A stretch of DNA of 42,919 nt, counting the filler, from Candidatus Desantisbacteria bacterium CG1_02_49_89 (lineage in GTDB: Bacteria > Desantisbacteria > UBA1551), in NCBI GenBank assembly GCA_001871075.1. It is 2 parts of 2 records of this genome, joined end to end, with 100 filler letters (N's around TTAATTAATTAA, not from the genome) between each part and the next. Parts side by side here need not be neighbours in the genome. Positions count along the whole stretch, not along the records: positions 1 to 31,263 come from MNUP01000006.1; 1 more part is not named here. One strand, given 5' to 3'. Shown in pieces: positions 6,440 to 15,579 of the stretch. Under the pieces are notes generated by a model. The model had not been told where the DNA came from and did no database searches. It worked only from the letters and a program-made list of their open reading frames with translations. The position numbers were made by a program, and so were the translations under genes. Positions within the stretch are counted from its first letter, which is position 1. Each line of letters starts with the position of its first letter.

Positions 6440-6467
6440 ATTATAGCACAAATCACAAAAAAGTCAA
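6440..6467 (-). promoter_or_regulatory. sigma70-type promoter of pit-DUF47
   Basis: TTGACT, 16 bp, TATAAT with a TGn extension. Confidence 0.55.
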
Positions 6468-6482
6468 GTAAGTATCCTGAAT

Positions 6483-7949
6483 TTATTTCTGTATCGTTAT
6501 TTCCACCCTGCGATTTTTAATTCGTCCTTCCTCACTAGTATTGAGCGCAATTGGTTTTTTCTCTCCATATCCTTTCTTTATCAATTTCTCGTCAGGTATA
6601 TCTTGTTTTACAAAATATTGCGCTACATTTTCAGCCCTGTCCTTAGAAAGCTCTAAGTTTGAAGGATATTTCGCTTTCAATCGCGGACTAATTGGCACGT
6701 TATCCGTGTGCCCCTCAATAAGAATAATTGACCCTGGATAAGCTTTTAACGCGTTTGTAATCAGGTCAAGCGCCTCATAACTCTCGGGGAGTATTTCGGC
6801 GCTGCCTGAAGCAAATCTGATCGCGGATTCCTGTGCTACTATAATAATTTTTTCATTATCTTCCGTTAGAATTAATCCTTCCAGTTTTTTCAAATCTTCC
6901 AGTGCTTTTTGATGCTCGCGCAGAAGTTTTTCAAGTTCTTCTTTTGCGCGTTTTTCCTTTTCTCTCTCAAGTCTTTCTTTTTCCCATCTATCCGCATCGC
7001 CAAAGAGGAAAGAAAGCGAAACCCACGCACCGCCCGTAAAGAACTCTGTTGAAGAATGATATGGAAGCGCAAATGCGCAATCTAATTTCCAGTCTGTCTT
7101 TTTAATGTTGTTTGATTTAACGCTTCCTCCAAAAACAAATGAAAAATCTCCATCGCCGCCTATTTTTGTTCCTGCGCGCACTCCCAAAATATTGTCCTGT
7201 ATAATTTTTTTTAAACCTTCTGTTTGTTTAAACCATGTTTCATAACCCAAGTTTAATTTAAAATCGCCGTTTCCTCTTATCGCTATGTCAGTTGAGCCCA
7301 CGATGTTATTAAAAACAGAAAAGCCATCAAATTTATAACCTGCTCCTGCTCTAAAACCCCATATTCCTGTTCCTATCTCAGTGCAAGAAATACCCACGCT
7401 TAATTTTTCAGTCTTTAGAGGCTTAAAAAAACAAGCCAAATCAGCGCTTAAATCTGCCGGAAATCTCTCGTCAAAGAACCTGCTGTCAGAAATTGCGGAA
7501 ATTGTTCTTGTATTATCAGGATAATTCTTAGAACACATTTTTAAAGTAACACCCCAGGATATTTTGGGATTTATTATCCCACAATAAGAAAGTCCCAAAA
7601 TGTTCTCTCTGTAACGAGCGGAAAGATTCACGCCACGGCTGAGGAGAGATATCCCAACATGCCCTATCTCAGAAATGCGGTTTACATAGCCTATGAATCC
7701 ATACAGGCTGTTTCCAGAGAGATGAAATAGATAAGAACCGTTTACTAGTAGTTCCGGGCGAGTAATTTGGAATAAACCTGCGGGGTTGTAGAAAAGAGTG
7801 GATGCGTCATCAGCAACCGCAATAAAAGCTCCCCCCATTCCAATACTGCGGGCACTAATGCTTAGGTCCTCAAAAGCAGCGTAACCGCCAGAGCAAAACG
7901 CAAAATATAAAATGCAGAATGTAAGTAATAAAATTTTGAGCTTCATCAT
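6483..7949 (-). CDS. Outer-membrane beta-barrel (PorV/FadL-like N-terminus) fused to an OmpA-like peptidoglycan-binding domain
   Basis: Signal peptide; SARSIGMGGAFIAVADDASTLFYNPAGL; C-terminal IEGHTD...NLELSKDRA...NRRVEI. Confidence 0.82.
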   Translation of the reverse strand: MMKLKILLLTFCILYFAFCSGGYAAFEDLSISARSIGMGGAFIAVADDASTLFYNPAGLFQITRPELLVNGSYLFHLSGNSLYGFIGYVNRISEIGHVGISLLSRGVNLSARYRENILGLSYCGIINPKISWGVTLKMCSKNYPDNTRTISAISDSRFFDERFPADLSADLACFFKPLKTEKLSVGISCTEIGTGIWGFRAGAGYKFDGFSVFNNIVGSTDIAIRGNGDFKLNLGYETWFKQTEGLKKIIQDNILGVRAGTKIGGDGDFSFVFGGSVKSNNIKKTDWKLDCAFALPYHSSTEFFTGGAWVSLSFLFGDADRWEKERLEREKEKRAKEELEKLLREHQKALEDLKKLEGLILTEDNEKIIIVAQESAIRFASGSAEILPESYEALDLITNALKAYPGSIILIEGHTDNVPISPRLKAKYPSNLELSKDRAENVAQYFVKQDIPDEKLIKKGYGEKKPIALNTSEEGRIKNRRVEITIQK

Positions 7950-7990: not shown

Positions 7991-9412
7991 TTACCAGATG
8001 CTCCTGCCGATTACCCGAAGTGCTGAATCGGATGGAAAGAATTTCTTGAAAATTCTGTAATATAAAAGCTCTTCCTTGTTCCTGAGCGTTAACGAATTGT
8101 CTATAATTCTTTCTTTTTCAAATTCCTTATCAGAAATCTGCGTATTTGCTGCTTTCTCCATCATTTCGTAAGAACCTGAACCCTGGGAAAATTTCTGTTT
8201 TTTTCTCCAGACTATCTCTTTGGGCAGAATGCCCTCAAATGATTTTCTCAGGATCCATTTTTCCTGCAGGTTAGCCGCGGTTTTCAAAGCGGGAGAAATC
8301 CTCAAAGCGAACCGGACAAAATCAGTGTCAAAAAAAGGTATCTTTGCCTCTATGCCGCACGCTGAAGGTATCCTGTCGCAGCGCTGGAAGCCGGTATTAT
8401 AAAGCGCAAGCAGCAGATTGGTCATTTTTATCTGCAGCTCCCTGCCTTTCAGGTTTTTCAGGAAATCATAGCCAGCGAATAATTCATCTCCCCCCTCGCC
8501 GATAAAAACGGTGTCAATGCCTTTCTCCTTCGCAAGCCGTGCAACAAGGAAATTCGGTATTGAACTGCGCACAAGCAAAGCGTCAAAAGATTCAAGGCTG
8601 TATATGACTCCGGGCAGGATTTCTTCCATGTCTTTCCTGCCGTATACGATCGTAAAATGCGGCGTCTTGAGATACTCGGCAAGCATGGATGAAAATTTCA
8701 GATCCGGGCTCCCCCTGGTCCCCGCGGACAGAAAAATTACATTCCCGAAATTTTTTTTAACGAGATAAGCGATTATGCTGGAATCTATCCCGCCGCTCAG
8801 GAATATACCAACCCGGGACTTGCCTTCCAGCCTTTTGCGCACCGCTTTTTCAAGATTTTCCCTGAGGAGCGGCATTATTTTCTCAGGCTCAGAAAGCAGC
8901 GGGGCGGCATAATGGGCGGTCCAGTGCCGGTGCAGGCCGCATTCCGAACCGATGAAATGGCCGGGGGGCAGCGAGCTGATTTCTTTGGCGGCTGCCTGCA
9001 ATGACTTTATTTCCGAGGCGAAGTATATCTTATCCCCGCACCTGCTGTAGTAAAGCGGCTTAACGCCCAGTCTGTCCCTGACCAGCATGAGGGATCCCGC
9101 GTCATAAACCGCTATTGCGTATTCCCCGTTAATGCATTTGACGAAATCATTCTTCCTCTCCCGGAACAGGGACAGCAAATCCTCGGAGCTGATCTTTCCC
9201 GCGTTTCTGCCGTAAACTTCCCCGTCGACAAGAATGCAGCCTCTCCTGTCTCTGAAAAAACTTGAATCCGGATGTATCGCAAAGCCAAGCGAGCAGCTGT
9301 CGCCGTAAAAAAACATCGCCCTTCCGCTTAGGCCCCTGTGCTCTATTTTACTGAGCATGGTCCCTAGCAGTTTCCTGCCGCCCGATTTATATATGCCCGC
9401 GATCCCCGACAT
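7991..9412 (-). CDS. Asparagine synthetase B-like ATP-dependent amide ligase (N-terminal Cys replaced by Ser)
   Basis: MSGIAG, HRG, RDRLGVKPLYY, LSGGIDSS PP-loop, GEGGDELFAGY, EKWILR, WRKK. Confidence 0.88.
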   Translation of the reverse strand: MSGIAGIYKSGGRKLLGTMLSKIEHRGLSGRAMFFYGDSCSLGFAIHPDSSFFRDRRGCILVDGEVYGRNAGKISSEDLLSLFRERKNDFVKCINGEYAIAVYDAGSLMLVRDRLGVKPLYYSRCGDKIYFASEIKSLQAAAKEISSLPPGHFIGSECGLHRHWTAHYAAPLLSEPEKIMPLLRENLEKAVRKRLEGKSRVGIFLSGGIDSSIIAYLVKKNFGNVIFLSAGTRGSPDLKFSSMLAEYLKTPHFTIVYGRKDMEEILPGVIYSLESFDALLVRSSIPNFLVARLAKEKGIDTVFIGEGGDELFAGYDFLKNLKGRELQIKMTNLLLALYNTGFQRCDRIPSACGIEAKIPFFDTDFVRFALRISPALKTAANLQEKWILRKSFEGILPKEIVWRKKQKFSQGSGSYEMMEKAANTQISDKEFEKERIIDNSLTLRNKEELLYYRIFKKFFPSDSALRVIGRSIW

Positions 9413-9436
9413 GCTGATTTCCTTTTTGGTTCAGCG

Positions 9437-9571
9437 TTATTTTTGCCGCGCGCGTTTTTTTAACTTTTGCCGCTTCGGTAAAAAACAGGAGGCCCATGTT
9501 TTACGCGTTATGCAAAAGCCTCTTTTAGAAGCAAGCCTGCATTTGACGCCGGTGTATCTGCATGTCCGCAA
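9437..9571 (-). CDS. Small basic four-cysteine protein (44 aa), putative
   Basis: GAGGAGG RBS then TTG at 9571; C-x6-C-x8-C-x8-C; lies between the riboswitch terminator and the asnB-like gene. Confidence 0.5.
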   Translation of the reverse strand: MRTCRYTGVKCRLASKRGFCITRKTWASCFLPKRQKLKKRARQK

Positions 9572-9619
9572 TGTTCCTCCTCTGCTCTTTTTATATTCTA
9601 ACGTCCTTGATATTTGCAA

Positions 9620-9705
9620 TAAAAAAAGCCGCCTGCCTGGATTCCTTTTCCAGGATAGCGGCCCGACTATCGCATTTAACCTCTGGGAATGCTGTTCCCA
9701 GACCC
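9620..9705 (-). ncRNA. Monovalent-cation riboswitch (nhaA-I / Na+-Li+ type) with intrinsic terminator, copy 1
   Basis: Minus strand GGG-TCTGGGAA/TTCCCAGA-GGTTAAAT..GATAG-TCGGGCCG-CTATC, then GCCGC..CCTGGA/TCCAGG..GCGGC-T7 overlapping P2. Class assigned from memory of the GGGU..AGGUU..GUCGGGCCG consensus. Confidence 0.75.
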
Positions 9706-9733
9706 TTGCACCTTAGCTCCAGATTCTAATTAT

Positions 9734-9762
9734 ATTATACCATATCAATTCCCTCTTGTCAA
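9734..9762 (-). promoter_or_regulatory. sigma70 promoter for riboswitch copy 1
   Basis: TTGACA, 17 bp, TATAAT with a TGG extension. Confidence 0.8.
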
Positions 9763-9866
9763 CAAAAATTTCTATTTCTGGTTAAAATTTATTATATTAT
9801 TTTCCCTAAGCTGCATCGAACCAGGTATAATCAGCCGGAAGCAATATAATGGAATCCCCGGCATAC

Positions 9867-11051
9867 CTATTCCTGCTTTGCTCCTATTTCTCCGGCTTTT
9901 TTCAGGGCAAATTTGGTACAAAGGGGGCCGAATAATTCATATATTATGCTGGTAGTCACGATGGTAGTAATAATAATTCCGCCGATTTCCGGGAATGTAG
10001 CTTTTGCGATAAGCGCTGTGCCGAGTGCAACGCCTGCCTGAGGAAGAAGCGCAAGCCCCAGATATTTCCTAACCGAATGCCCTGCGTTTGCGATCTTAGC
10101 CCCGATTGAAGCGCCCCAAATTTTACCCAGAGAACGAAAAACAATATATACCAATCCGATCATCCCCAATTTCGGCAATACGGCAATCTCAAGGCTCGCT
10201 CCCGCGAGCACAAAGAAAATTAAATACAGCGGAGAATCAATCGAATTGAGACTGTTAAAAAACTTCGAACTTTCCCTGTCTATGTTAACGAGGACTCCAC
10301 CCAGAAACATACTTGCCAGAAGAACCGAAAGGTGCAAATAGATTGCAAGCCCTGCATTTAAAAGAATAAAACCGAGGGTATATGTTAAGAGTTCAGCCTG
10401 AGTACGGATATAGCGGGAAAACCGCTTCATTGCCCATGCAATACCGCCCCCGAGGATCAGGGCGCCGAAAATCTCCAGCAGCGATAAAAATACCACCTTA
10501 ACAAGAAACAACGCTGAAAGCATGTGGAAGTGAACTGCTCGCGCGATTGCAAGGGAAATAGCAAAAATAATCAGGCACCACGCATCGTCAATAGCAACAA
10601 CGCCCAGCAGCGTATCCGTAAAGATGCCTTTCGCCCTGTATTCTCTCACCACCATAAGTGTTGCTGCCGGAGCAGTGGCAGATGCTATTGCCCCAAAAAC
10701 CAAAGAAAGATAAAATGGCTGTTTGAGTATGAGCCAGAAAGAAAGGGTAGTAAGCAACCACGATCCACACGCCTCAAGAATTGAAGTCCATAAAACAGGC
10801 CTGCCTATCCTCTTGAACGATTCCCTTGAAAAGCTCTGCCCCAGGGAAAAAGCAATGAAGCTAAGTACGATATTTGATATGAACCCCGAATTATTTATTA
10901 GTGACGGCGAAATAAGGTTAAAAATGGACGGTCCGATAAGGATCCCGATAACCAAATAAGCTGTAACGCTGGGAAATTTCATCCTCCCTATCAGCTTTGC
11001 GCTAAGCAAGCCGACGAGAAGGATAAAACTGAAACTCAGTATCGCGTTCAT
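9867..11051 (-). CDS. Cation:proton antiporter (CPA2/KefB-like)
   Basis: Many TM segments; PSVTAYLVIGILIGP, ATAPAAT, VAIDDA, FFVLAGA, PQAGVALG. Confidence 0.9.
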   Translation of the reverse strand: MNAILSFSFILLVGLLSAKLIGRMKFPSVTAYLVIGILIGPSIFNLISPSLINNSGFISNIVLSFIAFSLGQSFSRESFKRIGRPVLWTSILEACGSWLLTTLSFWLILKQPFYLSLVFGAIASATAPAATLMVVREYRAKGIFTDTLLGVVAIDDAWCLIIFAISLAIARAVHFHMLSALFLVKVVFLSLLEIFGALILGGGIAWAMKRFSRYIRTQAELLTYTLGFILLNAGLAIYLHLSVLLASMFLGGVLVNIDRESSKFFNSLNSIDSPLYLIFFVLAGASLEIAVLPKLGMIGLVYIVFRSLGKIWGASIGAKIANAGHSVRKYLGLALLPQAGVALGTALIAKATFPEIGGIIITTIVTTSIIYELFGPLCTKFALKKAGEIGAKQE

Positions 11052-11536
11052 TTAATAAGTCCCTTCTTTTCAAATATTGCCAAAAGGATATCAAATACTC
11101 CTATTATGCCCGTAAGCCTGCCTTCTTTATCGGTAACCGGCAGCCTGTCCACGGAATTTATCTTCATTGTCGTGTATGCTTTTTCAAGGGGCATATCCTC
11201 ATCCAGATGCAGGAATTTTGCGTCCATTATGTCCTGGGCTATAAAAAGCACCCCCGCGTCTTCGTCTATGTCCAGGTTGAATATGTCCACTTCTTCTTTT
11301 TCAAGGAAAGGCACTCCCTTTATGAGACTGGTCCCTTTTGTCTGAAATATTTCTATAAGGCCCCTGAAAGAAATAGTACCTATCATAATACCTTCTTTGT
11401 TAACAACGGGAACCACGGGAAACGTGTGGAAACCCCTGAATTTCTTAAGCAGTTCCTGGAGGGTTGTTCCGGGGCTTATGAAAATCACCTCTCTGTCCAT
11501 CACGTCACTGACTAAAATAGGATTATCATTATTCAT
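11048..11536 (-). CDS. CBS-domain pair protein
   Basis: VSDVM...VPVVNKEG..IGTIS and IM...RLPVTDKEGRLTGII; coupled to both neighbours. Confidence 0.9.
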   Translation of the reverse strand: MNNDNPILVSDVMDREVIFISPGTTLQELLKKFRGFHTFPVVPVVNKEGIMIGTISFRGLIEIFQTKGTSLIKGVPFLEKEEVDIFNLDIDEDAGVLFIAQDIMDAKFLHLDEDMPLEKAYTTMKINSVDRLPVTDKEGRLTGIIGVFDILLAIFEKKGLIK

Positions 11537-13163
11537 TTATTTTCCCTCTCAGAGAATCCATTCTTGCTTTTTCTGAAATTATTTTTCCCGTCTTTCCGTT
11601 TACCGCGCAGCATTTTCCGTCAATAATCATGGTCGCTATTCCGCCCTTCGCGCAGGGATTTTTTTTCAGGTGGGGCGCGTCTAACAGACCGGTCTCTATC
11701 GCGCGCGCTATGACTTCCGGGTCCGACCACGGGTTCCCGGAGCCCTTCCCCAGTTCCTTCAGCGCGCTGAGGAGTATCCCGGCTTCCTTTACCAGTTCCT
11801 TTTTCCTGCGCTGCACCCTTGAGTCGTTTGTCATATCCGGAAAATCATCAAGCGAATTATGGGCCATACCTCTGATGATCTTGCAGCTTTCTATAAGTTC
11901 CCCCGGGCTCACGATATGATGAGCTTCGCAGTAACCTACCACGTGCAGTATGTGGGGCTTAAGTGCAAGGCTCAGCAATCCGGACGCGGCAAGCTGCCCC
12001 TTCGCGATGTCCATGTCAGGCAGGAAACTTGCAAGCCCTGCGCGCACCTGGCGGAAGGAAGTGAAATTATCGTCGTGCAGCCCTTCTATCAGTTCAATCT
12101 TGGCAAGCATCTTGCCGAGATCCATCGCAGGGGAGGTACCGGGCGGCGTGTTGAACATATACTGCGAAACGTAGTATCTTGCACCGAGCTTCTTCGCGTT
12201 ATAAGCCGCCAAAAAAGCCATTGCGACCGCAAGGGAATCATGGGCGTTCCTCAGGCTCCACTGGTGGGATTCATTCACCTCAACCGGTATTCCCCGGCCT
12301 GCATACCACCTGATCGCTTCCTGATTTTCTTTTATCGCGTCGCGTATCGGCCTGTCCGAGCGTCCGTCAAGCTCGCTGTACCAGCACAGCGGAACCGCTC
12401 CCCAGGCAATGTTTATGGTCTCCTTGAGCATCTCCGCCCATTTTATAAGGTCACGCGTCCCGCTGTAGCATCGCAATAGCGGATAATTACCGCGCCTTGC
12501 CGCGTCATATATAGCGCGAAGGTCTTCGGGTTTCCTTAAAGGCACTCCTCCAGCTCCGTCCTGCCCCGGCTTCATCTCGTCCGGCCGGAAAAAACTTTCC
12601 TGAGCGTTCTGGTCAGGCCCAAGCGAAAGCACGTCCAGGACACCCGATTGCGCGATCAGGCTTGCCCCCTCAACGGTATCCTTCACGGAGGGTAGACCGA
12701 AATGATGGCGCAGGATCGGAAAAGGATAACTCTTGTTGATTCTCGATACAAGGTCCTGCGGAAATGCCTCTTCGCCCTTGTAACTGGTTTCTCCTTTAAG
12801 GTATGCCTTTATCTCGTCCAGCGGTTCGGCTCCCTCGAAAACGCGCTCAAATAATCCGCTTTTTCGCGCGGTCTCTGCGACAGCCGGAGTTCCCCCGAAA
12901 ACAATCCTTGTTCCCGAAATATCATTCTCCCGTATCTTTGCTTTTATCTGTTCAAAAAGCCTGCCCGCGACTTCCGGGTCAAGCCTGTAGCTTATCGCGA
13001 CCAGGTCAGGGCTCTCTTCTTTTATAAACCGCATTAATCCTTCAGGCGATATTGCGGAACCGAGGAATTTCGCTGTATGGCCCTCTGCTTTGCACAGATC
13101 AAGGAAATTCAGCAGTCCGGCGACGTGAATGCAGGTGCCTATGGATGCCCCTATAATCTTCAT
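11529..13163 (-). CDS. Cobalamin-binding-domain protein fused to a large putative catalytic (mutase-like) domain
   Basis: N-terminal B12-binding fold: CIHVAG (DxHxxG variant), LG, AISY, FGG; about 400-aa C-terminal region of unknown specificity. Confidence 0.75.
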   Translation of the reverse strand: MKIIGASIGTCIHVAGLLNFLDLCKAEGHTAKFLGSAISPEGLMRFIKEESPDLVAISYRLDPEVAGRLFEQIKAKIRENDISGTRIVFGGTPAVAETARKSGLFERVFEGAEPLDEIKAYLKGETSYKGEEAFPQDLVSRINKSYPFPILRHHFGLPSVKDTVEGASLIAQSGVLDVLSLGPDQNAQESFFRPDEMKPGQDGAGGVPLRKPEDLRAIYDAARRGNYPLLRCYSGTRDLIKWAEMLKETINIAWGAVPLCWYSELDGRSDRPIRDAIKENQEAIRWYAGRGIPVEVNESHQWSLRNAHDSLAVAMAFLAAYNAKKLGARYYVSQYMFNTPPGTSPAMDLGKMLAKIELIEGLHDDNFTSFRQVRAGLASFLPDMDIAKGQLAASGLLSLALKPHILHVVGYCEAHHIVSPGELIESCKIIRGMAHNSLDDFPDMTNDSRVQRRKKELVKEAGILLSALKELGKGSGNPWSDPEVIARAIETGLLDAPHLKKNPCAKGGIATMIIDGKCCAVNGKTGKIISEKARMDSLRGKINE

Positions 13164-13164
13164 C

Positions 13165-14298
13165 CTAAACGTCCTCCCCTATCGCGTATGCCCTCAGCTC
13201 TTTCACCGTCATACCCGCTATTCCGAGTTTTTCCACAGTCCTGCCTTCTTTCCAATAATCTTTTTTGTGGATGGCTGACGCGAGATATATTACCGACTTT
13301 ATAGCCGGCGTTGGCACACCAAGCATTTCCCCCACGGAAGCTATGGGAACAAGGCTGCATGGAACGTCCTCACTGATGTAGCGGCTGTTCAGCGAGCCGG
13401 GAGACAGGATCCTCTGATAGGCCGGATTTGAATGTATCATTTCGTAAAGGCTGTTTTTCTTTCCGCCGTACGAGAAGTAAAACCAGTCCTTGGCGGACAT
13501 CGCCCTCATGCCGAGAGCCGCCGCTACCGCTACCCTTTCCTCATCGAGCTTTTCCAGGACCGCGGCGACCGAGGGGGAGCAGCCGTCCACGTAAAACCGG
13601 AAACGAGGGGTTTTCAGTCCAGGCAGGCGGATGCCCAGAAATTTAAGGTCAGAAGAATTCTCCACCCATCCGGTGTTCAGGATCGTTATTGCCGGATGGA
13701 ATATCGAACCGATATTATTCAGGCTTGTCTTAAATATATCGTCTCCGGGGACAAACTGAGGAAAGGCTTCCCTGAGCGTATCCACCACTTTTGGTATATT
13801 ATGTGCGCCTATTGAAGCAACCGGGACTTCCTTTTTTATCCCGTAGATCCTAACCTCGCCGAACGCGCTTGCCCGTGAAGCGTAAAGCAGGGTTTCCGCT
13901 TCCGCGATGATTACGTCTGCGCTGCAGCCCTTTTCCTTCAATACCTGCCTGAATTCCAGGGCGCCGAACGTCCTGCCTGGGTTGAGCACGATTATCTGGC
14001 CGTTCTGCAGGTGCGGCGCGCATGCCTCCGCGATAAACCTGTGCGCCGTGGCAGGAGTCACCACCATCAGCACATCGGTGCCTGTTACGGCTTCCCCTGC
14101 GTCTGTGGTGACCATTTTAAGCTTTCCATATCCCTCGACTTTTCCCCTGACCCGTAATCTTTTGATCATTGAAAGGGAGAAGATCCTTTTTTTGCCGCGG
14201 TTGTAAAGATTAACGGGGAAACCCATTATAGCAAGGTGCCCTGCCATGGCAAGGCCGCCGTTACCCGCGCCTAATACGCAGAACTTCAATTTCTCCAC
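13165..14298 (-). CDS. NAD/NADP-dependent opine (octopine/nopaline-family) dehydrogenase
   Basis: GAGNGG Rossmann motif, LNPGRTFGALE, ETLLYASR, N.G.IFHP, FYVDG, D.ER, RYISEDVP; GTG start. Confidence 0.9.
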   Translation of the reverse strand: MEKLKFCVLGAGNGGLAMAGHLAIMGFPVNLYNRGKKRIFSLSMIKRLRVRGKVEGYGKLKMVTTDAGEAVTGTDVLMVVTPATAHRFIAEACAPHLQNGQIIVLNPGRTFGALEFRQVLKEKGCSADVIIAEAETLLYASRASAFGEVRIYGIKKEVPVASIGAHNIPKVVDTLREAFPQFVPGDDIFKTSLNNIGSIFHPAITILNTGWVENSSDLKFLGIRLPGLKTPRFRFYVDGCSPSVAAVLEKLDEERVAVAAALGMRAMSAKDWFYFSYGGKKNSLYEMIHSNPAYQRILSPGSLNSRYISEDVPCSLVPIASVGEMLGVPTPAIKSVIYLASAIHKKDYWKEGRTVEKLGIAGMTVKELRAYAIGEDV

Positions 14299-14315
14299 TT
14301 TTCATCCCCCGCAAT

Positions 14316-14398
14316 AAAAAAAACCGCCCGCCTGGTTTTTTCCAGGATGGCGGCCCGACCATCGCTCATTTAACCTCTGGGATATGGTTCCCAGACCC
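14316..14398 (-). ncRNA. Monovalent-cation riboswitch (nhaA-I / Na+-Li+ type) with intrinsic terminator, copy 2
   Basis: GGG-TCTGGGA/TCCCAGA-GGTTAAAT..GATGG-TCGGGCCG-CCATC, with a compensatory pair change versus copy 1; terminator GCCGCC..CCTGG/CCAGG..GGCGGT plus U-tract. Confidence 0.75.
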
Positions 14399-14426
14399 TC
14401 TTTCACCGCGTCCACTTTCCAATAAT

Positions 14427-14455
14427 ATTATACCACACCTGCCCTGTTTTGTCAA
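14427..14455 (-). promoter_or_regulatory. sigma70 promoter for riboswitch copy 2
   Basis: TTGACA, 17 bp, TATAAT with a TGG extension. Confidence 0.8.
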
Positions 14456-14634
14456 TAAAAAATCAGGCTTAGGCACGAAATATGAAGAGCATGCAGAAGA
14501 TAGAGCTGCCTTTATTTGAATTACCCCATGGCAAGCCGCGGGGAGCTAAATCATACTACTGATTAGAATTTTAAAAAGTGCTCCGAATTCCTTTTATTTT
14601 TCAATGCCTTTAAAAATAGTGCCTGTCCCTGCCT

Positions 14635-15579
14635 TTAAATATATTCAATCGTGCTGGGGGGTTTTGGCGTGACGTCGAAAAGCACCTTTGTCACGTCAGG
14701 AACGCTTCCGGTTATCCTCTTCTGCATTTTCTCAAGCGCGCTGAACGGTATCCTGGTCACCCCTGCCGTGATCGCGTCCCTTGAATCAACTGAGCGCACT
14801 ACCACTATCTGGCCGAAAGTCCTTTTTCCGTTTATGACCCCTGTTGCCCTGTCTTTCAGGAGCACCGCGAAAGCCTGGAACGGCTTTATCCCCGCCTTTT
14901 TGATCTCTTCTTCGACTATGACAGTCGCTTTACGCAGGGTTTCGACTCTTTCAGGCGTTACTTCACCTATAACTCTTGTCGCAAGGCCCGGGCCTGGGAA
15001 CGGCATCCTTTCGCTGTATTCCGGCTGGACACCCAGGGCCCTGGCAACCATCCTTACCTCGAACTTGTAAAGGTCTTTTATCGGCTCAAGGATTGTCAGG
15101 CCGTATTTTCTCGGGCTTATGCCTATCTGCTGCAGGATATTGTGCTGTGTTTTTATGCCCGCCTTTGTTTCCATGATGTCAGCCGCGATCGTGCCCTGTA
15201 TCATGAACGACGCCTTGCTGATCCTTACTGCCCTGCCAAGGGTTTTATAGAACGTGTCCCTGAATGCCTTTCTTTTTATTTCAGGGTCCTCGATCCCCTT
15301 AAGCGCCCTGAAGAAATCAGCCCGGACGTTCAAGATCTTAACATTAACCCCCAGCCTTGCAAGGTCCTTCTTCACCTTCCTGCCCTCATCCTGCCTCATC
15401 AGCCCGTCATCAATGAAAAGTATGACCGCCCTGCTGCCGATCGCTTTGTGCGCGAGCACCGCGCAGGTAACGCTGTCCACCCCGCCTGAAGTCGCGACAA
15501 GCGCCCTTTTGTTTCCGACCCCGGACTTGATCTCCTTTATCCTTTTCCCGATATACGCCTTTACGTTCTTTAGCCCCAT
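14635..15579 (-). CDS. guaA: GMP synthase ATP-pyrophosphatase subunit (no glutaminase domain)
   Basis: SGGVDS, DPEIKRK, QGTI..D, IKTQHN, PFPGPGLATR, DVTPKPPSTIE; 314 aa. Confidence 0.85.
   Translation of the reverse strand: MGLKNVKAYIGKRIKEIKSGVGNKRALVATSGGVDSVTCAVLAHKAIGSRAVILFIDDGLMRQDEGRKVKKDLARLGVNVKILNVRADFFRALKGIEDPEIKRKAFRDTFYKTLGRAVRISKASFMIQGTIAADIMETKAGIKTQHNILQQIGISPRKYGLTILEPIKDLYKFEVRMVARALGVQPEYSERMPFPGPGLATRVIGEVTPERVETLRKATVIVEEEIKKAGIKPFQAFAVLLKDRATGVINGKRTFGQIVVVRSVDSRDAITAGVTRIPFSALEKMQKRITGSVPDVTKVLFDVTPKPPSTIEYI

Follow-up and report, generated by a model that had tools for sequence, protein, structure and literature searches.

In a stretch of 42,919 nt from Candidatus Desantisbacteria bacterium CG1_02_49_89 (assembly GCA_001871075.1; two parts joined by filler, hereafter the window), two copies of the nhaA-I riboswitch were identified on the minus strand, at 9653-9705 (copy 1) and 14345-14398 (copy 2). 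Both elements are members of the nhaA-I family of monovalent-cation riboswitches, and the RNA itself is ordinary for the described class. Copy 2 leads a transcription unit (unit 2) for an opine dehydrogenase, a B12 mutase-like enzyme, a CBS protein and a Na+/H+ exchanger, and copy 1 a unit (unit 1) for an AsnB-like enzyme and an OmpA-type envelope protein. With a probability of roughly 0.78, the two RNAs are working ON switches which co-induce cation export and one split pathway when the cation concentration is raised.

The nhaA-I motif RNA is reportedly to be credited to Weinberg et al. 2017. In a search of the whole window with Rfam cmscan, the corresponding model RF03057 (gathering cut-off 37 bits) matched copy 1 with 45.7 bits (E = 4.9e-6) and copy 2 with 44.2 bits (E = 1.1e-5), in both cases over model positions 1-55 of 55. 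Three Rfam matches reached the gathering score in the window, these two and one tRNA, and no other nhaA-I copy was found in the assembly (2.48 Mb, 150 contigs, 93.5% complete). The original prediction had named nhaA-I, which this search bore out for both copies; with respect to the related DUF1646 (Na+-I) class, model RF03071 gave no match in the whole genome or the window. In both copies the minus-strand sequence is GGG-UCUGGGA..UCCCAGA-GGUUAAAU-..-GAU(A/G)G-UCGGGCCG-C(U/C)AUC, and the two hairpins P1 and P2 with their loops are as had been described. Each copy folds alone into P1 and P2; in copy 2 these are joined by the linker AGGUUAAAU, and the P2 loop is CGGGCC. Promoter and terminator included, the two modules are 82% identical across about 200 nt. 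Their comparison confirmed that the copies differ in the P1 loop and in one compensatory change in P2 (A-U versus G-C). Neither copy has lost any of the nucleotides that are invariant in the family, and both occupy a 5' leader position in front of a same-strand gene, with a promoter upstream.

Pairing was further assessed in an alignment of 14 aptamers, the two window copies and 12 from other genomes. P2 was paired in 97.6% of the cells, 13 cells were changed on both sides, and the covariation score of P2 was reached by none of 500 shuffles. As P1 was misaligned by MAFFT, pairs were counted for P2 only; when folded individually, 11 of the 14 aptamers formed P1 and P2 despite differing P1 sequences. 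GGGU, AGG and the CGGGCC loop are conserved and form invariant columns across the alignment. DNA contigs from four sequencing runs aligned to 9400-14500 showed no listed variant inside either element, and thus supplied no usable covariation within the population. A segment upstream of the aptamers, TGGA..GGTG, had also been noted as shared. The words TGGA and GGUG are indeed present in both copies, but their spacing differs (5 versus 3 nt), and they are absent from all four of the other leaders with upstream sequence that were inspected; on both grounds they are ascribed to shared descent and not to a separate element.

Sigma-70-type promoters lie about 22 nt upstream of each aptamer, at 9734-9762 for unit 1 and 14427-14455 for unit 2 (both minus strand). 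As had been claimed, both are consensus promoters (TTGACA-17 nt-TG-TATAAT), with 12 of 12 matches and a TG extension in the promoter scan. Downstream, intrinsic terminators are predicted on the same strand at 9621-9664 for copy 1 (5' arm GGGCCGCU, run of 7 U) and at 14316-14356 for copy 2 (5' arm GGGCCGCC, run of 8 U), the 5' arm overlapping the P2 loop and 3' arm in both. In the minimum-energy fold of the full leader, P1 is kept while GGGCCGC(U/C), which consists of the conserved P2 loop and the beginning of the P2 3' arm, pairs with GGCGG(C/U)U in front of the run of 7-8 U. When P1 and P2 were enforced, the terminator stem was lost in both copies, at a cost of 16.6 kcal/mol (copy 1) and 11.4 kcal/mol (copy 2) relative to the terminator state. 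As the terminator state is the more stable one, termination would be the default. The mutually exclusive pairings agree with the earlier statement that the folded aptamer excludes the terminator, and they fit the published terminator-type nhaA-I representative. From these folds we infer that both elements act as transcriptional ON switches by anti-termination.

According to the proposed mechanism, the nascent RNA would form the more stable terminator in the absence of ligand, and transcription would stop at the U run. With the cation bound, the aptamer (P1, linker, P2 and CGGGCC loop) would sequester the GGGCCGC(U/C) needed by the terminator, and polymerase would read through. The trigger would most likely be raised cytoplasmic Na+, with Li+ probably acting too. 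The two switches would co-induce two halves of one pathway (unit 2 and unit 1), the presumed output being cation export and small-solute synthesis. Between the exchanger gene and the unit 1 promoter no convincing terminator was found (fold z 0.36), and transcripts of unit 2 may therefore read through into unit 1.

Two further observations concern the DNA around copy 1. The unit 1 promoter region (9724-9762) and a segment just upstream of it (9768-9803) are the only stretches common to some other contigs, which then diverge; these stretches may be repeated in other contexts or organisms. The minus-strand spacer of about 200 nt between the copy 1 terminator and the AsnB-like start (9413-9620) holds a long imperfect hairpin with a terminal U run and, behind GGAGG, a 12-codon mini-ORF (9525-9563). 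A second regulatory element in this spacer was considered and is unsupported (fold z -1.74, no Rfam match at E ≤1, no second copy in the genome).

The majority of nhaA-I RNAs are Li+-I riboswitches preceding nhaA, and rare Na+-responsive variants with intrinsic terminators, termed Na+-II, are described from Deltaproteobacteria only, in front of genes of unknown function, as far as the accessible text of White et al. 2022 (PMC9646797) extends. The Na+-II representative from Desulfobulbus propionicus, for which read-through with Na+ was shown, carries C at 'position 54', a base that is U in most nhaA-I RNAs, and in a C54U mutant of the Na+-II RNA the response was broadened to Li+, Na+ and NH4+ (PMC9646797). 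Constructs in supplement 1 of that paper place position 54 directly 5' of CGGGCC. This base is U in both window copies (AGUCGGGCC and GGUCGGGCC); given the terminators, the copies combine a Na+-II platform with a Li+-I nucleotide. The original prediction had been cautious as to the exact class, aptly in view of this combination.

How common the combination is was judged from 16 nhaA-I hits in 13 other genomes (18 aptamers with the window copies). Hits were obtained in seven of 151 genomes sampled around the window lineage (the window's own included), in five of six genomes from the phylum of genome G008 and in three of 151 from the class of a Phytopseudomonas genome; the phylum-level samples around G014 and G143 comprised only two and one genomes, respectively. 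Two further genomes were reached via loci from a scan for the aptamer as a DNA pattern, in which the matches listed were mostly chance occurrences in GC-rich coding DNA, L033 and L059 being real. Hits were classed as terminator-type if a run of at least 5 T occurred within 40 nt after a hairpin overlapping P2. This applied to ten of the 16, and an eleventh (G405) has the hairpin with a U tract that is weak by eye. Position 54 is U in nine of the ten and C in one (G401); the single-nucleotide rule that separates Li+-I from Na+-II thus fails for the terminator-bearing RNAs sampled. P1 opens with a pyrimidine (GGGU-Y...R-AGG) in all ten, in both window copies and in the published Na+-II construct. 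Three gammaproteobacterial hits read GGGUG...CAGG, have no terminator and are followed 16 nt downstream by the start of NhaA, and GGGUG...CAGG is likewise found in the Rfam consensus and in three Li+-I constructs of the supplement (PMC9646797). The hit in G143 has this type of P1 base and no terminator, and that in G023 no terminator and a U-G first pair. Orthologous membrane proteins of 111-115 aa without a Pfam match (mutual identity 55-61%) are encoded behind U-type aptamers in G008 and G177 and behind the C-type one in G401.

These comparisons suggest that terminator-bearing nhaA-I RNAs form one subtype with a variable position 54, to which the window copies would belong. The trigger is most likely Na+ and/or Li+. 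Of the two, Na+ appears more probable as the natural trigger, and Li+ would probably work as well, a preference argued from the 18 aptamers and one published assay. The window copies are natural test cases for the discrimination of Na+ and Li+ by aptamers. It is unlikely that both RNAs are Li+-selective (Li+-I) and that their operons serve lithium detoxification, with the exchanger exporting Li+. Such a function would agree with the U of both copies at the position that is U in Li+-I RNAs and C in the Na+-II RNA, with the full-length match to an Rfam model whose members are mostly Li+-I, and with a cation/H+ exchanger among the targets. However, the P1 base and the terminator platform are of the Na+-II type and not of the NhaA-linked type, NhaA (PF06965) was not found in the 93.5% complete genome, and the co-regulated enzymes are elsewhere linked to c-di-AMP riboswitches, which according to the literature, as far as its accessible text goes, accompany osmotic-stress genes.

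Among the hits in other genomes, two tandem nhaA-I aptamers in L191/L194 (G096:C235:6526-6784, minus strand) are 197 nt apart, each with a terminator, in front of a Pfam-less ORF of 180 aa. The Pfam-less membrane protein of 111-115 aa is a recurrent first gene behind terminator-type nhaA-I RNAs in one small phylum (L007 17919-18266, L187 1628-1969 and L189 1088-1423). In G008, nhaA-I leads an operon (L007 5944-14121) that encodes a GT20 trehalose-phosphate synthase with an N-terminal extension, a trehalose phosphatase, a DUF5752 protein, a TreT-like synthase, MscS and a patatin-like protein.

All genes of the two units lie on the minus strand. In unit 2, the opine dehydrogenase family gene (13165-14298, 377 aa) has a GTG start 18 nt past the U run; its product matches PF02317 (2.9e-46) and PDB entry 1bg6, N-(1-D-carboxylethyl)-L-norvaline dehydrogenase (2.6e-70). 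The next gene (11529-13163, 544 aa) encodes a B12-binding domain (PF02310, 8.8e-11) fused to a glutamate-mutase-E-like barrel, with the motif CxHxxG. It is followed by genes for the CBS-pair protein (11048-11536, 162 aa; PF00571, 3e-25) and for a Na+/H+ exchanger family protein (9867-11051, 394 aa; PF00999, 3.8e-35), which is of the CPA type with a weak CPA2 match and is not NhaA. Unit 1 starts with the gene for the AsnB-like amide-forming enzyme (7991-9412, 473 aa; PF00733, 9.3e-62; PDB 1ct9, 1.8e-60). The gene for an envelope protein with an OmpA-type C-terminal domain (6483-7949, 488 aa) begins 42 nt after it and is probably co-transcribed; the next strong promoter-like site on the minus strand in the promoter scan is at 6467. 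In the OmpA-type protein, a signal peptide is followed by about 300 residues that match UPF0164 faintly, then by a coiled-coil-like stretch rich in Glu and Lys, and finally by the OmpA domain. Directly upstream of unit 2, the minus-strand gene at 14635-15579 encodes a stand-alone protein of 314 aa whose match to GMP synthase is confined to the C-terminal ATP-pyrophosphatase part, suggesting a split guaA.

For the 544-aa protein, an AlphaFold model was obtained with a pLDDT of 88.1 and a pTM of 0.75. Its best Foldseek matches were to the glutamate mutase E chain (6h9e_B, E = 5.9e-16; 1cb7_B, E = 1.3e-15), with TM scores of 0.64-0.65 by target and 18% identity; next came lysine and ornithine aminomutases and methylmalonyl-CoA mutase, and these relations recur in the ESM Atlas. 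The Pfam family Met_asp_mut_E (PF06368) gave no hit in the window protein itself, and a homologue that is 57% identical (P0098) passes its cut-off. A sequence profile of the mutase family searched against the PDB reached only B12-binding domains and not GlmE, and the link to GlmE is thus based on the fold search and the Pfam hits in homologues. In the cofactor loop CxHxxG, residues C11, H13 and G16 are invariant in 18 sequences. Zhang et al. 2009 (PMC2667541) predicted a B12 family whose genes always adjoin pfam02317 and, in several organisms, lie near Asn synthase and D-Ala-D-Ala ligase genes.

The dehydrogenase and mutase genes, with or without the AsnB-like gene, form a cassette that recurs elsewhere. 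A search with the mutase retrieved 22 metagenome loci; one is identical to the window, and the other 21 were compared. The opine dehydrogenase gene lies directly upstream of the mutase gene on the same strand in 20 of these, the exception (L146) having a 30%-identical dehydrogenase downstream of it. An AsnB-like gene is directly downstream of the mutase gene in 14 of the 21; since several rows are near-identical pairs, the 21 loci correspond to about 14 distinct ones when collapsed by eye, eight of them with the AsnB-like gene. Among 401 sampled genomes, 18 (the window's own included) contain the mutase at E ≤1e-60, and 16 of the other 17 were compared, the partial match in G396 being omitted. 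The dehydrogenase gene is adjacent to the mutase gene in all 16 and the AsnB-like gene in three. The trio is contiguous elsewhere and split in the window into two units, each with its own switch. The retention or gain of a copy of the same cation switch by each of the separated parts speaks for a joint function of the three enzymes that is called for at raised cation levels.

Genes next to several other cassettes resemble those in the window at the family level. CBS protein and Na_H_Exchanger genes are divergently placed beside the cassette in L139 and L150, and a CBS protein gene alone (L141), a CLC channel gene (L137) or an amino-acid permease gene (L133) is found in others. The CBS and exchanger genes of these loci were not detected by tblastn with the window proteins at 1e-8, hence the limitation of the likeness to the family level; for the OmpA-type protein, too, tblastn at 1e-8 matched none of the 37 other cassette loci. 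In G001 (87% complete), the only relative from the same order, the dehydrogenase, mutase, CBS and exchanger genes make up the same operon as in the window (65-79% identity), and no AsnB-like gene was found in this genome with the window query.

When 32 other cassette loci were scanned with Rfam at gathering thresholds (the near-duplicates L132, L135, L138, L140 and L142 left out), a c-di-AMP riboswitch (100-107 bits) was found directly upstream of the dehydrogenase gene in three (L143, L176 and L177); none was found in the window's own genome. Together with nhaA-I in the window, this points to a salt-induced product of the cassette and suggests salt as the inducer of the pathway. In a separate locus (L131, 7487-7557, plus strand), a fluoride riboswitch (RF01734, 42 bits) immediately follows the mutase gene and precedes His_Phos_1 and DUF6062 genes.

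Control of biosynthetic enzymes had been put forward as the notable feature of the two RNAs. Biosynthetic targets as such are not new for nhaA-I, as trehalose-6-phosphate synthase (otsA) is the target of 16 of 944 nhaA-I RNAs in Supplementary Table I of PMC9646797. GT20 genes were also found behind three of the nhaA-I hits in other genomes. What stands is the particular set of enzymes: in its accessible part the same table has 171 targets entered as 'hypothetical' and 52 as 'other' and does not name the opine dehydrogenase/mutase/AsnB-like set, and no publication linking this set to a riboswitch was found in literature searches, some of them screened by title.

The AsnB-like enzyme bears on a further candidate ligand. 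Its N-terminus, MSGIAGI, has Ser in place of the N-terminal Cys nucleophile, and the enzyme thus lacks the glutaminase Cys. Among 19 rows of cassette-linked homologues, seven have Cys as residue 2, and in the other 12 this residue is Ser, Ala, Glu or Gln. Enzymes in which this Cys is missing would need free ammonia or another amine. It is conceivable, with a very low probability, that the RNAs respond to NH4+ (or broadly to Na+, Li+ and NH4+) and induce ammonia-dependent amidation at high NH4+. The missing Cys in the window protein and in 12 of the 19 homologue rows would be in line with this, as is the NH4+ response of the published C54U mutant, which has the same combination of nucleotide and platform as the window copies (PMC9646797). 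On the other hand, only poor NH4+ affinity was reported for the Li+-I aptamer (PMC9646797), and the neighbours (Na+/H+ exchangers, CBS proteins and c-di-AMP riboswitches) indicate ion or osmotic stress more than nitrogen status.

Several observations weigh against cation-responsive ON switches that co-induce a solute pathway. A simple terminator scan listed neither riboswitch terminator, so that both terminators are derived from folds. At the published specificity position the window copies are in the Li+-I state. None of the 32 other cassette loci scanned contains nhaA-I, and no riboswitch precedes the operon in G001, which indicates that the switches are a lineage-specific addition or loss. 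The glutamate-mutase-like enzyme possibly has a catabolic role. The window DNA occurs in runs from groundwater and aquifer metagenomes, settings in which salt stress would not be an obvious factor, and none of the 24 sequencing runs checked is on record as RNA. Least probable of all is that the elements are decayed or non-sensing copies left by duplication as constitutive attenuators or terminators: the G001 operon does run without a riboswitch and the two copies are paralogous down to a common promoter, but the invariant family nucleotides are intact in both, their sole P2 difference is compensatory, and the DNA contigs from four runs show no listed variant inside either element.

With the two RNAs read as working ON switches, solute synthesis is the best-fitting role of the cassette, judged from its neighbours and from the two unrelated stress-linked riboswitch classes that precede it. 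The switches attach a regulatory cue to an enzyme family which was predicted in 2009 and has had no function assigned since, and they name concrete conditions under which the pathway product may be sought, that is salt, Li+ and c-di-AMP status. A more far-reaching proposal is put forward tentatively and is rather less likely to hold than to fail: the cassette might constitute a salt-induced pathway to a new type of compatible solute via an adenosylcobalamin radical enzyme, and the U-type terminator nhaA-I RNAs might be natural counterparts of the C54U mutant, acting as broad Na+/Li+ sensors and representing the common form outside Proteobacteria.

Compared with known systems, the window copies are closest in layout to the Na+-II riboswitch (PMC9646797), with which they share the two-hairpin aptamer, the pyrimidine that opens P1 after GGGU, the ON-switch terminator with a 5' arm GGCCGCU overlapping the P2 loop and 3' arm, and downstream genes other than nhaA. 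They differ from it by U instead of C at position 54 and by their host: the range given in the accessible text of that paper is Deltaproteobacteria, whereas the window host falls outside that group, its mutase having its best named homologue in Candidatus Desantisbacteria (76% identity). With Li+-I riboswitches (nhaA-I motif, RF03057) they have in common the family model, the U before CGGGCC and the conserved GGGU and AGG. The canonical members among the hits sampled, however, read GGGUG..CAGG and are terminator-free with NhaA 16 nt downstream, whereas the window copies have terminators, no NhaA was found in their genome, and the first genes are those for the opine dehydrogenase and the AsnB-like enzyme. 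The Na+-I riboswitch (DUF1646 motif, RF03071; PMC9337991) would be similar in function as a cation-triggered anti-terminator that controls osmolyte synthesis, the role proposed here, but it belongs to a different covariance model with no match in the genome; its logic was reported for a gene for the precursor of N-epsilon-acetyl-beta-lysine, along with a tandem of Na+ and c-di-AMP riboswitches before an osmolyte gene (PMC9337991). The c-di-AMP riboswitch (ydaO type, RF00379) binds a different ligand and is not related to the window RNAs, with which it shares the opine dehydrogenase and B12 mutase cassette as a target (in L143, L176 and L177).

Among the enzymes, the AsnB-like protein differs from the glutamine-hydrolysing asparagine synthetase B in the absence of the N-terminal Cys nucleophile. 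The mutase-like protein resembles glutamate mutase GlmS/GlmE (1cb7, 6h9e) in its B12-binding domain and, according to the predicted structure, in a GlmE-type barrel; it differs in being a single chain, in having CxHxxG instead of DxHxxG, and in its identity of only 18% to GlmE. A B12 family of this kind had been predicted in 2009 (Zhang et al., PMC2667541), always with a pfam02317 neighbour and with Asn synthase encoded nearby.

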